Below are positions 9,326 to 55,392 of a stretch of 64,000 nt of DNA, in pieces. How positions within the stretch are numbered: position 1 is the first letter of the stretch; each line of letters opens with the position of its first letter. The position numbers were made by a program, and so were the translations under genes. The notes below the pieces were generated by a model. It had not been told where the DNA came from and ran no database searches. It was given only the letters and a program-made list of their open reading frames with translations. The stretch is taken from contig JAZDKW010000010.1 in NCBI GenBank assembly GCA_043802665.1, forward strand, positions 4,024 through 68,023. The letters are read 5' to 3'. The stretch is from Patescibacteria group bacterium. Its GTDB lineage: Bacteria; Patescibacteriota; Kazan-3B-28; UBA10110.

Positions 9326-10108
9326 ATGCGACAGCTACTTTCAGTTCTATCGATCGCTGTGCTGATAGCGATGATCGTTTTCTTCAATGTGGTCACACCG
9401 GTCCAAGCGGATGAAAATGCTCCGCCGCTGAGCCAGGCCGACCTGGATTATGTCAGTGAGAATATTCACATTCTGTACGAAACAGGAATTCTGGAGGGAT
9501 ATCCCGAAGGTAACGAGTTCGAGGGTGAAAATATGGTCACCCGATTTGAGGCAGGGGTAATTTTAAGCAGATTTTATAGTTTCCTGCTCAATGAGATCAA
9601 TGAGCATGGAATCGAAGTGATGGATTTTGTTGATATCCGATTCCCTTTGGATGAGCCTATGGATATGAACGATATCCCTAAAAACCACTGGGCTTATGAA
9701 GAAATTAAGAAAGTTGAGCACATGGGCGTAGTGGTCGGTAACCCCGAGGGTCAGTACCTGGGCTCGGAGCAAGCAAACCGCTACGAGTTTGCTGTAATGT
9801 TATTGCGAATGGTTGTTTTGATGGATTTTGGTCTATGGGAGGCTATCCCAGGTTATGATGCTGGTTTCCGGTATTCGCATCTGGCGAAACCGGAACTAAT
9901 CGGAGAAGCTCCTGAAGAATATTGGGCGCAAGTAGATGTAAGAAGGTTTCTGGGCGCACGCGAACCTCAATTGACCCCCGACGATATAGCAAAAGGAGGC
10001 GGACCATTTACGCGTAACGAGTTGGCCTTCATACTCCTTAGGCTATCAGACAAATTTACAGCCGAACTCGGCGAGATTGATGATTTTCTCGCGCAAAAAA
10101 AGAAATAG
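9326..10108 (+). CDS. Secreted protein with two S-layer-homology (SLH)-like modules.
   Basis: Signal peptide, then ILEGYPEGNEFEGENMVTRFEAGVIL and VVVGNPEGQYLGSEQANRYEFAVML (the SLH motif G-Y-P-D-G-x-F-x-P-x-x-x-x-T-R-A-E). Confidence 0.55.
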   Translation: MRQLLSVLSIAVLIAMIVFFNVVTPVQADENAPPLSQADLDYVSENIHILYETGILEGYPEGNEFEGENMVTRFEAGVILSRFYSFLLNEINEHGIEVMDFVDIRFPLDEPMDMNDIPKNHWAYEEIKKVEHMGVVVGNPEGQYLGSEQANRYEFAVMLLRMVVLMDFGLWEAIPGYDAGFRYSHLAKPELIGEAPEEYWAQVDVRRFLGAREPQLTPDDIAKGGGPFTRNELAFILLRLSDKFTAELGEIDDFLAQKKK

Positions 10109-10160: not shown

Positions 10161-10190
10161 ATGCTTCAAAACCCTTTGAATCTCAAGGGG
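10161..10190 (+). terminator. Intrinsic terminator after the SLH gene.
   Basis: AAACCCTTtgaatctcAAGGGGTTTTTT. Confidence 0.6.
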
Positions 10191-10225
10191 TTTTTTCATT
10201 CTCTAAAAAAGTTTACGGACAATTT

Positions 10226-10256
10226 CAACGGCTCAACCCGTTGAGCCGTTGAAATC
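10226..10256. repeat. Long palindrome TTCAACGGCTCAAC-cc-GTTGAGCCGTTGAA; family member 1.
   Basis: 11-15-bp arms read directly; a related palindrome is at 37316..37345. Confidence 0.6.
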
Positions 10257-10269
10257 TTGCTATAAATTC

Positions 10270-10383
10270 TGGCGGTGTGCGTTCGAAAAAATTCGAACCG
10301 ATTTCGCCCAAAATTTGTAGGGCGGGCGGAATTCCCCCCAGACCCCCCTTCCACCCGCCCGCAGAAGCGACCCTTTCGGATTG
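10270..10383. repeat. IR-a left copy (114 bp, perfect inverted repeat of 11542..11655). Begins with TGGCGG (the reverse complement of a tRNA 3' end) and contains an internal GC hairpin.
   Basis: Base-by-base comparison with the reverse complement of 11542..11655. Confidence 0.85.
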
Positions 10384-10421
10384 GACGATTTCAAGTTTTT
10401 CTTTGGCGGCAAATTCTTTTA

Positions 10422-11168
10422 TTATTCTTTTTGTGCATAACCAATATAACCCAATTTCGTATTTTTCCCGATACCAAATTTAAACTCACCTTTTTTTATT
10501 CCCGCTAATATTCCCGCTAGTATAAAACCTTTTGTTTCTATATTTTTTATATTATATTTTTGCATTAAAAAATTAAGTTCGTCTGGCTTGATGAATTTTT
10601 TCCATTCATGTATATCCACGTTTTCGCCTGATACCTTTAAAGTTTTAAATTGTTTCATCATAAAATAATTAAAAAACCAGTTCATAATTTTTGAAAGAAT
10701 AGTTCTATTTATAGTAAGATAACAAAATTTTCCGCCATGCTTTAGTACCCTTGAAGTTTCGCTTATTACTTTTTCAAGATTGTTTACATGTTCAAGACAG
10801 TCAGCGCAAACTACCACATCAAACGTATTATTTCCCATAGGAATATTTTCTGCAGAACCTACCCTGTAATCAATTTTCAAGTTATTTTTAAAGGCATGAT
10901 TTATTGCCACTTTTATAGCATTTTCAGAAATATCTATTCCAGTAATATTAGCATCTTTTTTAGCAAACTCTTCAGCTAAAAGTCCACCGCCACATCCCAT
11001 GTCTAAAATCTTTAATCCTTTTAATTCTCCAATTGCTTCACTGAAATAGGAAAATCTTACAGGATTCATTTGTTGAAGCGGGTTATTTTTAGTACTCCAC
11101 CAAAAATCATCTATCCGATTGTACATATTGTCTTTAACTATTTTATTTTCTTTAATCCATTTGTCCAT
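10422..11168 (-). CDS. Class I SAM-dependent methyltransferase (UbiG/SmtA-like small-molecule methyltransferase), AT-rich cargo gene.
   Basis: ILDMGCGGGLLAEEF (motif I) and FDVVVCADCLEHV; this stretch is visibly far more AT-rich than the flanks. Confidence 0.75.
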   Translation of the reverse strand: MDKWIKENKIVKDNMYNRIDDFWWSTKNNPLQQMNPVRFSYFSEAIGELKGLKILDMGCGGGLLAEEFAKKDANITGIDISENAIKVAINHAFKNNLKIDYRVGSAENIPMGNNTFDVVVCADCLEHVNNLEKVISETSRVLKHGGKFCYLTINRTILSKIMNWFFNYFMMKQFKTLKVSGENVDIHEWKKFIKPDELNFLMQKYNIKNIETKGFILAGILAGIKKGEFKFGIGKNTKLGYIGYAQKE

Positions 11169-11177
11169 ATGTTTATA

Positions 11178-11384
11178 TTATTTTAATAAATCCTCTATTG
11201 AAACGCCAAGAGATTTGGCTAATTTTGCCATAATAAGTACAGACGGCTTTTTAATAACATTGCTCTCAATCTTTGTAAGAGTAGTGTATTTCACGCCAGA
11301 TTTCTTGGCAAAATCCTCTTGGGATAATCCCTGCTTATTTCGGTACTTTTTTATATTTTCGCCTATGTTGATTTCTATTGCCAT
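11178..11384 (-). CDS. XRE-family helix-turn-helix transcriptional regulator.
   Basis: 68 aa with QGLSQEDFAKKSGVKYTTLTKIESN, the classic Cro/C1 HTH. Confidence 0.8.
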   Translation of the reverse strand: MAIEINIGENIKKYRNKQGLSQEDFAKKSGVKYTTLTKIESNVIKKPSVLIMAKLAKSLGVSIEDLLK

Positions 11385-11396
11385 ATTATCACTAAT

Positions 11397-11445
11397 TTGA
11401 TAGTATTAAAGTGTTATACTATCCTTTCAATATAATACTATCAAA
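11397..11445. promoter_or_regulatory. Operator-like array of half-sites GATAGTAT / ATACTATC (x2) overlapping a TTGATA-17-TAGTAT promoter for the XRE gene.
   Basis: Palindrome TTGATAGTAT-N9-ATACTATC plus a third half-site ATACTATCAA 13 bp further on, directly upstream of the XRE start. Confidence 0.5.
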
Positions 11446-11541
11446 TTTTATGAAAATAGTCCAATTAAAAATGAGGGAAGCCCGCTTTTGGCCCAAAATG
11501 AAATTCGAGCCGATATTTTTTCAGGTTCTTTGGCAGTTTTT

Positions 11542-11655
11542 CAATCCGAAAGGGTCGCTTCTGCGGGCGGGTGGAAGGGGGGTCTGGGGGGAATTCCGCC
11601 CGCCCTACAAATTTTGGGCGAAATCGGTTCGAATTTTTTCGAACGCACACCGCCA
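11542..11655. repeat. IR-a right copy (114 bp) ending in CCGCCA.
   Basis: Identical to the reverse complement of 10270..10383. Confidence 0.85.
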
Positions 11656-11656
11656 A

Positions 11657-11736
11657 TTGGGAAATGTCTTTGTTGGCTCGCCCTCTGCGAGGGCTCGCCA
11701 GCCGATTTTAAGCGCAAATCGGAATTTTTTATCTTT
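11657..11736. repeat. IR-b left copy (80 bp).
   Basis: Identical to the reverse complement of 13169..13248. Including CCGCCA, the match is 87 bp with one mismatch. Confidence 0.85.
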
Positions 11737-11806
11737 GCCCCGCTACTGCGGGGCTGGTCAAAAGCGGGCTTCCCGAATTTTCATTTTTAATTTTTAAGGA
11801 GAAACC

Positions 11807-13435
<1,629 letters not shown>

Positions 13436-36561: not shown

Positions 36562-37101
36562 TCACTTAACTGGCCTGGAAACTAATTGCCAGATTTTTTG
36601 GATAGCAAATTCTTCATTCCCTACTACCAATTTATACAGCACTGGACTAACTACCACCGCGAAAATTACATTTCCGCCCAGGTGCCAAAGGGTAAATGGA
36701 ATTTGGCCGATGAGCGCTTGCATAAATGACATCTTAAAAATTACACTGCTCATAATCGGGCCGGTGATAAAATCGTAAATCAGAGTGGCCACAACAGAAA
36801 ATCCAGCAAAATTCAAAGCACTGGCTGATCGATTCTTAAACCACCAGGCCGCTCCCAACCCCACCAAACCATACATCGCCGCAGTCACCCAAGTCCAAAC
36901 CCCAAACTTAGTCAGCAAATCAAAAATAATGATACTTAAAAATCCGAAAGCAAAACCGCCAAGATAGTTAAACCGTTTGCCGAATGGCATAGTGGTTGCC
37001 ATCACTGGTTCTATATTAGGCACTCTCCATGGGATTAGCCGAATTAGCAAAACCACCGCCAGGCCCAGGATATACTTTATCACAAGATTAACCTTTTTCA
37101 T
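36562..37101 (-). CDS. Polytopic membrane protein, ECF-transporter S-component-like (tentative).
   Basis: 179 aa with five to six TM helices; the assignment rests on architecture only. Confidence 0.35.
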   Translation of the reverse strand: MKKVNLVIKYILGLAVVLLIRLIPWRVPNIEPVMATTMPFGKRFNYLGGFAFGFLSIIIFDLLTKFGVWTWVTAAMYGLVGLGAAWWFKNRSASALNFAGFSVVATLIYDFITGPIMSSVIFKMSFMQALIGQIPFTLWHLGGNVIFAVVVSPVLYKLVVGNEEFAIQKIWQLVSRPVK

Positions 37102-37102
37102 C

Positions 37103-37211
37103 CCGTTAGAGGCAAACTGCCTTAGTTAATAATAAACTTCTGCACATACATTATCTGAGTTGAGAGTTAACCGTTAGTTCACGAAACCTTTTGAGGCCCC
37201 TGCCTCTAACG
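37103..37211. repeat. Inverted repeat ATCCCGTTAGAGGCA … TGCCTCTAACGGGAT (copy C), abutting the start codon of 36562..37101.
   Basis: Read directly. Confidence 0.55.
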
Positions 37212-37315
37212 GGATTCATCTCCACCCCGCCCTTAATAATAGGTAACCGTATAATACCACACTGATAAAATCGGTTAGCAGACTCGAACAGAGACTTTTA
37301 TTATCTTTTTTGAAC

Positions 37316-37345
37316 GGCCCAACGCGTTGGGCCGTTCAAATCAAG
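37316..37345. repeat. Long palindrome TTGAACGGCCCAACG|CGTTGGGCCGTTCAA; family member 2.
   Basis: 15-bp perfect arms. Confidence 0.6.
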
Positions 37346-37354
37346 CTTAAATTT

Positions 37355-37397
37355 GCGGGAGATTTTCCATTTTGGTGGACCGTACCGGATGATTTTC
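37355..37397. repeat. Direct duplicate of the tRNA-Ala 3' end plus part of its downstream hairpin (19 bp exact TGGTGGACCGTACCGGAT).
   Basis: Identical to 37537..37555; flanks GGGAGATTTTCCATTTTGG versus GGGGAGTTTTTCATTCTGG. Confidence 0.6.
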
Positions 37398-37502: not shown

Positions 37503-37536
37503 GAATGAAAATCTCCCGTCGGGGAGTTTTTCATTC
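37503..37536. terminator. Perfect hairpin immediately 3' of tRNA-Ala.
   Basis: GAATGAAAATCTCCCGtcGGGGAGTTTTTCATTC. Confidence 0.5.
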
Positions 37537-37613
37537 TGGTGGACCGTACCGGATTCGAACCGGTGACCTCTACGATGCCATCGTAGCGCTCTACCAAGCT
37601 AAGCTAACGGCCC
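37537..37613 (-). tRNA. tRNA-Ala (anticodon GGC) with the G3:U70 identity pair.
   Basis: Manual fold: GGGCCGT/ACGGTCC acceptor, D-arm GCTT…GAGC, anticodon stem CTACG/CGTAG with loop ATGGCAT, T-arm ACCGGTTCGAATCCGGT, ACCA. Confidence 0.82.
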
Positions 37614-49458: not shown

Positions 49459-49478
49459 AATCAATTCGCAATTTAATA

Positions 49479-49505
49479 ATAAAAAACCTCCCAAGGGAGG
49501 TTTTT
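49479..49505. terminator. Bidirectional intrinsic terminator.
   Basis: AAAAAACCTCCCaaGGGAGGTTTTTT. Confidence 0.6.
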
Positions 49506-49543
49506 TATTACCCCCTTCCCAGGGTTCAAATCCTTATATGGTA

Positions 49544-49582
49544 AAGAGAAATAGCAACTTCAAAATGAAGTTGCTATTTCTC
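49544..49582. terminator. 18-bp perfect hairpin immediately 3' of tRNA-Arg.
   Basis: AGAGAAATAGCAACTTCAaaaTGAAGTTGCTATTTCTCT. Confidence 0.5.
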
Positions 49583-49658
49583 TGGCGCGCCCGAGAGGAT
49601 TTGAACCCCTGACCTTTCGGTCCGTAGCCGAACGCTCTATCCCCTGAGCTACGGGCGC
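49583..49658 (-). tRNA. tRNA-Arg (anticodon ACG).
   Basis: Manual fold: GCGCCCG/CGGGCGC acceptor, D-arm GCTC…GAGC, anticodon stem TTCGG/CCGAA with loop CTACGGA, T-arm AGGGGTTCAAATCCTCT, GCCA. Confidence 0.82.
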
Positions 49659-54845: not shown

Positions 54846-54938
54846 TGGCGGTGAGGGAGGGATTCGAACCCTCGCGGGGAATTGCTTCCCCCTACCGGTT
54901 TAGCAAACCAGCCCCTTCAGCCTCTTGGGTACCTCACC
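54846..54938 (-). tRNA. tRNA-Ser (anticodon GCT).
   Basis: GGTGAGG-TA-CCC-AAGAGGCTGAA-GGG-G-CTGGT-TTGCTAA-ACCGG-[variable hairpin]-GAGGGTTCGAATCCCTC-CCTCACC-GCCA. Confidence 0.85.
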
Positions 54939-55239: not shown

Positions 55240-55392
55240 GCCCCGCCTGCCCCGCGTATGCTGGGGCGAATGCCGGGGCGAACCCTCGCGGGGAATTGCT
55301 TCCCCCTACCGGTTTAGCAAACCAGCCCCTTCACGTCCTGCGTATGCGGGACAGCCTCTTGCCCCACATGCACGGGGTGCAGGTACCTCACC
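55240..55392 (-). pseudogene. Degenerate copy of tRNA-Ser(GCT): a 53-nt identical core with two roughly 20-nt GC hairpins inserted in the D-arm and the 3' T-loop/acceptor replaced by a third hairpin.
   Basis: 55281..55333 matches 54865..54917 exactly; insertions CGTCCTGCGTATGCGGGACA and CCCCACATGCACGGGGTGCA; the 3' end is replaced by …CCCCGCGTATGCTGGGG…. Confidence 0.45.

Follow-up and report, generated by a model that had tools for sequence, protein, structure and literature searches.

Two near-identical palindromes stand at the edges of mobile-looking DNA in a 64,000-nt stretch (hereafter the window) of a Patescibacteria metagenome-assembled genome (MAG; contig JAZDKW010000010.1, positions 4,024 to 68,023), and the question that they raise is whether they mark the borders of mobile elements or belong to something more widespread. 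An earlier reading, made from the sequence without database searches, had allowed for both, proposing either recombinase or host-factor sites at element boundaries or a family resembling the repetitive extragenic palindromic (REP) elements. The two sites are very probably ordinary chromosomal copies of a repeat family that is widespread in the Patescibacteria, or candidate phyla radiation (CPR), superphylum, and the idea of a repeated extragenic palindrome family is borne out by at least 116 loci in public genomes.

Copy 1 occupies positions 10222-10255 and reads ATTTCAACGGCTCAAC-cc-GTTGAGCCGTTGAAAT, with perfect 16-nt arms (10222-10237 and 10240-10255) about a 2-nt centre and the canonical AACGGCTCAAC core. 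Copy 2, TTTGAACGGCCCAACG|CGTTGGGCCGTTCAAA, is a 32-nt perfect palindrome at 37309-37340, the arms of which (37309-37324 and 37325-37340) meet with a centre of 0 nt; strand is not applicable to either copy. The copies differ at two places, C against G at the fourth base and T against C inside the arm, and each difference is mirrored in the opposite arm; the core of copy 2 is thus a T-to-C variant compensated by A-to-G. Their earlier description as two near-identical perfect palindromes holds, both being present with compensated differences. The quoted 30-nt strings in fact lie at 10224-10253 and 37310-37339, so that the original coordinates deviate by 2-3 nt for site 1 and 6 nt for site 2. The common pattern has two matches in the window against none in 100 dinucleotide shuffles, and relative to the core AACGGCYCAAC - short centre - GTTGRGCCGTT both sites have no mismatches and fully complementary arms.

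A covariance model (R1) finds exactly two matches in the window, with E values of 2.5e-10 for copy 1 and 4.9e-9 for copy 2; the next stands at 0.037, and no third copy was found. The model was built from hairpins of other organisms that adjoin a winged helix-turn-helix (wHTH) gene described below, together with the 14-nt left arms of both window sites (2 of its 58 rows), which introduces a small circularity. Folded as single-stranded DNA, the two sites reach -16.5 to -17.6 kcal/mol with z values of -5.6 to -7.2, copy 1 being at -16.5 kcal/mol (z -7.2) and copy 2 at -17 kcal/mol (z -5.9). The immediate flanks are ATTTC at copy 1 and TTTG at copy 2, and comparison of the flanks of the two copies gave weak similarity only. 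The word AACGGCTC occurs 3+1 times in the 64 kb, two of these occurrences lying inside a palindrome. Rfam gave no match at either site at the gathering threshold, and up to an E value of 10 only noise appeared (microRNA models at 20 bits against the 70-95 required).

Public genomes were scanned, one per species, with the pattern AACGGCNCAAC-N0-4-GTTGNGCCGTT, and the resulting loci and per-genome copy numbers are lower bounds. The form AACGGCTCAAC-(2-4 nt)-GTTGAGCCGTT was found at no fewer than 116 loci (loci are designated below by L numbers), and 92 of the 116 listed are labelled Patescibacteria/CPR, among them Saccharibacteria, Paceibacterota/Parcubacteria and Woese-, Wolfe-, Lipton-, Staskawicz-, Taylor- and Zambryskii-bacteria. 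Nearly all of these listed CPR matches read AACGGCTCAAC...GTTGAGCCGTT. The clearly non-CPR matches (Ralstonia, Hydrogenophaga, Polyangiaceae and others) mostly show G, A or C where the pattern leaves the base free, and have the appearance of chance matches or of ordinary terminators. Several nominally non-CPR contigs with the T form (L012/L098, L087) also carry the CPR-type wHTH gene and are probably mis-binned. Single genomes hold at least 3-11 loci among the matches listed (11 in CAYQPS01, 5 in JADFRL01 and 4 each in JAHKAK01 and CAYZCN01). Searches of the literature for the motif words and for palindromes of Patescibacteria/CPR returned no relevant description, and the hairpin repeat family is apparently undescribed. 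The Patescibacteria account for a large part of the diversity of bacteria, and their cis-acting DNA and RNA signals are almost wholly uncharted. In the viral collection a single contig carries the motif (L197 2865-2894; IMG/VR, 59,991 bp). The centre there is 8 nt long, and the contig may come from a phage of Patescibacteria or be a cellular one that was wrongly classified.

Clustering of the open reading frames (ORFs) that neighbour the palindromes gave one recurrent family, a gene adjoining 13 of the 116 listed loci. Its product is a protein of about 97 residues (~95-100) with an N-terminal hydrophobic, transmembrane (TM) helix, a basic stretch and a C-terminal wHTH domain matching HTH_24, and the palindrome lies after the stop codon of this TM-wHTH gene. 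In Patescibacteria the protein is annotated as ‘winged helix-turn-helix transcriptional regulator’, as ‘DUF977 family protein’ or as hypothetical. The reciprocal test used 80 metagenomic loci fetched with an alignment of the protein, by protein similarity only. With up to 2 mismatches allowed per arm, 48 of these 80 loci have the family palindrome within -30 to +250 nt of the stop codon, mostly 0-20 nt from the stop and in some cases overlapping the TAA. A looser CTCA...TGAG anchor brought out a hairpin in 68 of the 80, and the ‘negative’ loci, when read, proved to contain diverged versions of the same hairpin. The density is 2.22 palindromes per kb in this 280-nt interval and 0.048 per kb over the remainder of these loci, a 46-fold concentration. 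If each genome has one wHTH-adjacent copy, the figure of 13 in 116 listed loci implies about ten canonical copies per genome, which agrees with the counts given above.

The structure model of the TM-wHTH protein (predicted local distance difference test score 78, above 90 over the wHTH) consists of the TM helix, a long helix and the wHTH. The nearest solved folds are ArsR/SmtB repressors (CadC, SqrR, HlyU) and MarR repressors, both of which are groups that bind inverted repeats. The fold search returned nothing beyond generic ArsR/MarR, S25e and Z-alpha neighbours, and these folds do not discriminate between binding of DNA and of RNA. The residues S-D-A-T-x-x-R-Y, presumed to belong to the recognition helix, vary little or not at all, in parallel with the invariance of the DNA core. 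A second, unrelated type of palindrome was also seen near wHTH genes, namely CAACATCC(C)TTACAAACTyrAGAATGTAAGGATGTTG and ACATTCTCAAGAATGTGAGAATGT (L165 763-800, L113 ~400-500, L174 815 and 1172, and L135-L137 ~1970-2360); Patescibacteria may have more than one hairpin family.

The family consensus is yyC-AACGGCTCAAC-(loop)-GTTGAGCCGTT-Grr, which can form a tight hairpin of 11-16 bp on either strand; on both strands the core is preceded by T/C-T/C-C and followed by G-A/G-A/G. Among the copies counted, 67 have a centre of 2 nt between CAAC and GTTG, 29 one of 3 nt and 16 one of 4 nt; centres of 0 or 1 nt did not occur. In the protein-selected loci centres extend up to 20 nt, and the extra bases of those with 10-20 nt pair with each other. 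The stem is often extended by complementary bases that are not conserved, adding up to 20 more pairs, and some arms are lengthened by an 8-nt period of their own, AACGGCTC (L010, L011, L035, L070, L093).

Covariation was assessed in 56 hairpins picked only by position and the CTCA/TGAG anchor. Standard pairs amounted to 90.3% against 78.1% in shuffles, double-change cells to 118 against 41 and the score to 0.341 against 0.131; none of 500 shuffles scored as high and slid registers scored far lower. The lower stem takes the forms AACGG:CCGTT, AATAA:TTATT, ATTAA:TTAAT, AATGG:CCATT and AACAC:GTGTT in loci chosen independently of the stem, and 56 of 74 deviating positions in the left arm are compensated on the right. 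Paired arms number 301 and single arms 17 in 1.14 Mb. The covariation of the stem, the variable centre and the rarity of single arms together indicate that the hairpin or palindrome is the unit that is kept, and not independent half-sites. On the gene's sense strand the outer stem contains G.T and A.C in equal number (18 and 18), a lack of RNA-strand asymmetry that is expected of a strand-neutral element. Sites in divergent intergenic regions lean to a role in DNA, and the same stem in a structured RNA-like element leans to RNA.

This element was found beside the wHTH genes. At many loci a second, longer wHTH paralogue, with a Pro/Glu-rich N-terminus and the same wHTH, stands right after the hairpin, and in some the family hairpin lies inside the coding region of the paralogue (L071 856-1440, minus strand; L074 5689-6180; L012 95-706; L133 4147-4680). 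The arms there encode T-A-Q ... E-P-L (TAQPVEPL, TAQIPPNEPL), so the same DNA is constrained both as hairpin and as codons. Downstream of the short and long wHTH genes a G+C-rich non-coding element of ~450-550 nt is common to at least 25 loci (for example L133 4690-5230, L125 1017-1566, L074 6175-6720 and L071 330-870, minus strand). RNAalifold gives it 56 pairs, 17 of them with compensating changes, including a long-range helix of 22 bp, and there are many G.U pairs on the strand of the genes. It has no match in Rfam even at permissive thresholds, and is a candidate for a new large non-coding RNA. Hairpins closed by (A/G)CGGCTCA...TGAGCCG(T/C) occur within it at positions that differ by lineage. 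The structured element was not found in the 64-kb window, and apart from the paralogue and this element no other conserved neighbours of the wHTH gene were found.

We tentatively favour the reading that the palindromes are cognate sites of the TM-wHTH protein, arranged like those of parS/ParB or Ter/RTP. The site-reader would be the conserved ~97-residue protein, with its N-terminal TM helix, its long helix and a C-terminal wHTH that would face the cytoplasm. The stop codon of nearly every such gene coincides with a palindrome or is closely followed by one, and several more copies are scattered in intergenic DNA. Because the stem covaries, the centre is free in length and insertions are self-complementary, the protein would probably recognise the site in folded form, extruded from DNA as a hairpin or cruciform or folded in RNA, and not as flat duplex. 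Binding could then tether or mark loci at the membrane, or regulate neighbouring genes.

In the systems parS/ParB, Ter/Tus, Ter/RTP and NBS/Noc (NBS, Noc-binding site) there are few conserved sites, one of which lies in or beside the gene for the binding protein. The present family is similar in having few conserved, palindromic or near-palindromic sites with one in or beside such a gene, and in that conservation of the site parallels an invariant recognition helix. Noc further resembles the TM-wHTH protein in coupling DNA binding to the membrane, and RTP in being a winged-helix protein. The sequences themselves are different, however. The 16-bp parS consensus TGTTNCACGTGAAACA is absent, only the outer TTTC...GAAA of copy 1 being similar, the NBS and Ter sequences are unrelated to the family palindrome, and no homology to ParB, Tus or RTP was detected in the TM-wHTH protein. 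The variable centre and covarying stems, which point to a hairpin, also set the family apart from the parS, NBS and Ter sites. A parallel for a wHTH protein at a palindrome capable of forming a cruciform is HlyU of Vibrio, one of the structural neighbours of the model, a winged-helix ArsR/SmtB-like protein at a perfect palindrome able to extrude a cruciform (10.1101/2022.03.07.483294). As described there, HlyU differs in being soluble and in acting at single promoters, its site not being a genome-wide repeat.

A bolder and rather unlikely proposal is that the hairpin is an ‘address’ used in many Patescibacteria lineages, in which the membrane wHTH protein and its Pro/Glu-rich paralogue would read the AACGGCTCA...TGAGCCGTT stem as cruciform or RNA and so tether selected chromosomal loci or transcripts to the membrane of these ultra-small cells, the same stem, which closes variable hairpins in the ~500-nt RNA, belonging to one and the same system. 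If protein and site do form a pair, a 22-nt core common to Saccharibacteria, Parcubacteria and Microgenomates and linked to one small conserved protein would count among the rare signals that span a whole lineage, with a reach like that of parS. The pair is directly testable, and some of the host organisms have recently become genetically tractable.

Several points weigh against the pairing of the palindromes with the TM-wHTH protein. The link between protein and site is solely one of genomic adjacency, and the TM-wHTH gene was not found in the 64-kb window with tblastn. The position after the stop codon also suits a terminator or a hairpin that stabilises mRNA. A centre that varies from 2 to 20 nt is ill-suited to a rigid dimer on flat duplex, and wHTH proteins that read hairpins are the exception. 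The statistics of genomic context come from crude longest-ORF gene calls, and the scan pattern fixed 20 of 22 bases, which under-samples the diversity of the scattered copies.

The main rival reading, which is somewhat unlikely, makes the family a REP-like structural repeat without a wHTH protein of its own, a hairpin either selfish or domesticated by the host that spreads through intergenic DNA or persists there. Such a hairpin might act as a 3' exonuclease barrier, a weak terminator or a site for topoisomerase or a nucleoid protein, the wHTH-adjacent copy being then one conserved copy in a 3' untranslated region. REPs and the bacterial interspersed mosaic elements (BIMEs) that they form in Enterobacteria and Pseudomonas, associated with the transposase RAYT, are likewise short, repeated, extragenic palindromes that fold into hairpins with compensated stems beside genes of varied orientation. 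The window sites fit the description of a REP as an extragenic imperfect palindrome of 20-40 bp. The copies are placed as if randomly within intergenic regions, window copy 2 is missing at the orthologous tRNA-Ala locus of relatives, some genomes have longer repeated units or the 8-nt AACGGCTC extension (L010, L035, L070, L053/L077, L024), and hairpins with the same stem occupy lineage-specific places in the RNA-like element, as inserted modules would. The 5' GTAG/CGTC head of REPs is lacking, however, the family having T/C, T/C, C before AACGG, and REPs run to tens or hundreds of copies, against 2 in the 64 kb and at least 3-11 per genome among the matches listed (at least 11 loci in the richest MAG). 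No RAYT (Y1) transposase appears in the 25 most frequent Pfam families of 140 neighbouring proteins, and the linked gene encodes a membrane-anchored wHTH protein and not a transposase. REPs are species-specific, whereas here a 22-nt core is identical over very distant lineages of the superphylum, which is hard to maintain without a sequence-specific reader, and there is the 46-fold concentration beside the gene of one DNA-binding protein. Nor do copies occur at 3' ends alone: of the 69 sites classified, 12 lie between divergent genes, where a role at the 3' end of an RNA is impossible. An apparently low copy number, the breadth of conservation and the partner gene set the family apart from REPs. 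A classical duplex operator, in which a wHTH dimer acting as transcription factor would bind a 12-2-12 type of inverted repeat in flat double-stranded form and hairpin formation would not matter, would suit the ~60% of copies with a 2-nt centre and the nearness of the fold to ArsR/SmtB and MarR repressors, and one lineage has the site directly against the -35 region of a TAGAAT/TATAAT box that precedes the second wHTH paralogue. This is improbable, as many copies have centres of 3, 4 or 10-20 nt with self-complementary extra bases, as in hairpins and not in half-sites on B-DNA, 20 of the 69 sites lie between convergent genes, and the conserved place is after the gene and not before it.

That the copies are plain factor-independent terminators is very improbable, even though the stem is stable and G+C-rich, many copies follow genes (including directly after the wHTH stop codon) and a few (L086, L049, L061) are preceded by an A-run and followed by a T-run. 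In general no T-run directly follows the stem, the flanks being T/C-rich before and G/A-rich after on both strands, which leaves no U-tail, and conservation of sequence across phyla is atypical of terminators. Scans of the window omit both copies yet report canonical terminators 28 nt (10168-10194) and ~170 nt (37513-37526) away; the earlier view that the palindromes would be poor RNA terminators is upheld on both counts. The flanking genes of the 69 classified sites are convergent in 20 cases, tandem in 37 and divergent in 12. The median distance to a stop codon is 89.5 nt against 85 nt for random points in the same intergenic regions, so there is no bias to stops, and stops are no closer than starts. 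The sequence-only reading had expected plain terminators to be scattered without relation to tRNAs or islands and always 3' of convergent genes; the scatter is found, but the convergent placement is not general. For annotation, caution is advisable before such palindromes are called terminators, att sites or island borders.

The view of the palindromes as recombination or attachment sites at element boundaries, whether serine- or tyrosine-recombinase att, attC-like or Xer, is scarcely credible. It drew on the closeness of copy 1 (14 nt) to the 114-nt inverted repeat in a large-serine-recombinase region and of copy 2 (34 nt) to a copied tRNA-Ala 3' end, distances that had been correctly given. 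Elsewhere, four copies occur within 4.5 kb in L034, and in L023 a copy abuts a tRNA-Ala 3' fragment. Against this, more than 100 loci lie beside housekeeping genes: the Pfam families of the 140 immediate neighbours include ABC transporters, NUDIX, GTPases, LepA, RadC, sigma-70, HrcA and methyltransferases, and no integrase, transposase or other recombinase is among the 25 most frequent. Copies within 30 nt downstream of a tRNA number 4 of ~160 (at 7-28 nt, three of them at 7-9 nt), against ~1.6% expected by a rough estimate from intergenic space, a weak linkage. With the motif in only one viral contig and the palindrome absent at the relatives' locus as well, the claim that these sites mark element boundaries or tRNA islands is not supported. 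The centre varies in length, which crossover sites do not tolerate. Copy 1 is also not placed as a large-serine-recombinase att site would be, at the junction and tied to the recombinase, since the repeated junction word CTGGCGG (the tRNA-Ser 3' end) is outside the palindrome, which itself stands 14 nt outside the inverted repeat.

The resemblance to the attC sites of integrons, which are also read as a folded single strand, is confined to the boxes. An attC site has R'' and R' boxes of the form RYYYAAC/GTTRRRY, 40-120 nt apart in a total of ~55-140 nt, and stands in a cassette array next to intI. GCTCAAC/GTTGAGC and GCCCAAC/GTTGGGC fit these boxes, but here they are 0-4 nt apart, and there are no L''/L' boxes, unpaired central spacer or extrahelical bases. 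The perfect symmetry provides no choice of strand, the window sites measure 32-34 nt in total with a centre of 0-2 nt, and no integron integrase or cassette array was seen.

Two further candidates were set aside. A DNA uptake sequence is rejected, as arms standing alone show no enrichment (17, compared with 301 in pairs). The paired uptake sequences of Neisseria (DUS) and Pasteurellaceae (USS, uptake signal sequence), which also serve as terminators, are similar as inverted word pairs after genes in bacteria dependent on uptake, but their density is hundreds of times higher. A promoter was considered since TTGAGC/TTGGGC is followed 15-16 nt on by TAAATT at both window copies; the flanks of the family lack such a box and promoter scans were silent.

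The setting of the two window copies remains to be described. Their neighbours are SLH, methyltransferase, ECF-S-like and tRNA genes. Upstream of copy 1, the SLH-domain gene (9326-10108; Pfam SLH) ends in a canonical intrinsic terminator found by the terminator scan, a hairpin with T6 at 10168-10200 on the plus strand. The organism therefore uses ordinary terminators, and copy 1 lies beyond one. A T-run had been claimed before both palindromes; this is correct for site 2, but at site 1 the T6, 26 nt upstream, is the tail of the terminator at 10168-10194. On the other side of copy 1, after 10 nt, CTGGCGG at 10266-10272 (strand not applicable) is, from direct reading and the inverted repeats, the likely left junction of a ~3-kb serine-recombinase region, and the same word ends tRNA-Ser(gga) at 13249-13255. 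Synteny was uninformative at copy 1, the relatives with the SLH protein being non-syntenic.

The region is a mosaic of ~3 kb (10266-13339) that adjoins tRNA-Ser(gga). It contains an S-adenosylmethionine-dependent (SAM) methyltransferase gene (10422-11168, minus strand), an XRE-like ORF and an ORF for a phage-integrase-like large serine recombinase (11807-13435), which runs antisense into tRNA-Ser(gga). Perfect inverted repeats are nested within it at 10270-10383 / 11542-11655 (114 nt) and 11650-11736 / 13169-13255 (87 nt), and further ones are located at 10384-10419 / 11891-11926, 11494-11520 / 13142-13168 and 11522-11541 / 11944-11963, some falling within the 5' part of the recombinase ORF. 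In appearance the mosaic is an integrated element or one with multiple inversions (shufflon-like), or else a set of inversion isomers mixed in the assembly. On the simplest reading of the sequence, it would have inserted at the 3' end of tRNA-Ser, and copy 1 would be native flank that once lay ~13 nt after the tRNA.

At copy 2, the 3' end of tRNA-Ala(ggc) with its terminator flank is repeated 164 nt downstream, the second copy (37356-37390, minus strand) being a 35-nt direct repeat of 37520-37554 with 86% identity. A relative (L200, positions 1-210; 79% identity in leucyl-tRNA synthetase, LeuRS) conserves the ~130-nt spacer and a degenerate second tRNA-Ala 3' end. The palindrome is absent there and at the orthologous tRNA-Ala locus of two further relatives (72-80% LeuRS identity across the three), so palindrome copies are labile in position over evolution. 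The tRNA-Ala duplication may have been left by an old integration, or it may represent a small RNA resembling a tRNA. ARAGORN found no transfer-messenger RNA in the window, and the permuted-tmRNA model of Rfam reached only E 9.7.

Both palindromes thus stand 13-35 nt beyond sequence like a tRNA 3' end, and tRNA 3' ends are a usual place of insertion for integrating elements. The closeness of the palindromes to mobile-looking DNA would be due to this shared position; the element probably came to the palindrome instead of carrying it, and neither window copy is likely to belong to the adjoining mobile-looking DNA. The evidence for mobile elements in the window would then consist of the recombinase, the nested inverted repeats and the duplicated tRNA ends, the palindromes being removed from the list.

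Three other features of the window were observed. A perfect 55-nt direct repeat (54865-54919 / 55279-55333) has its first copy inside tRNA-Ser(gct) (54846-54938, minus strand), a fragment of which is duplicated 414 nt away, and is possibly another integration scar. A perfect hairpin with 18-nt arms at 49545-49583 (AGAGAAATAGCAACTTCA tct TGAAGTTGCTATTTCTCT) abuts the 3' end of tRNA-Arg(acg), with a bidirectional terminator at 49477-49510; hairpins straight after tRNA genes seem to be common in this genome. Finally, just upstream of the ECF-S-like gene (36562-37101), a stretch of ~115 nt at 37100-37216 (minus strand) lies between 15-nt inverted repeats (ATCCCGTTAGAGGCA / TGCCTCTAACGGGAT). It has no Rfam match and includes an ORF of 22 codons for which there is a good ribosome-binding site; it may be a leader or an attenuator, or else a small element that inserted here.

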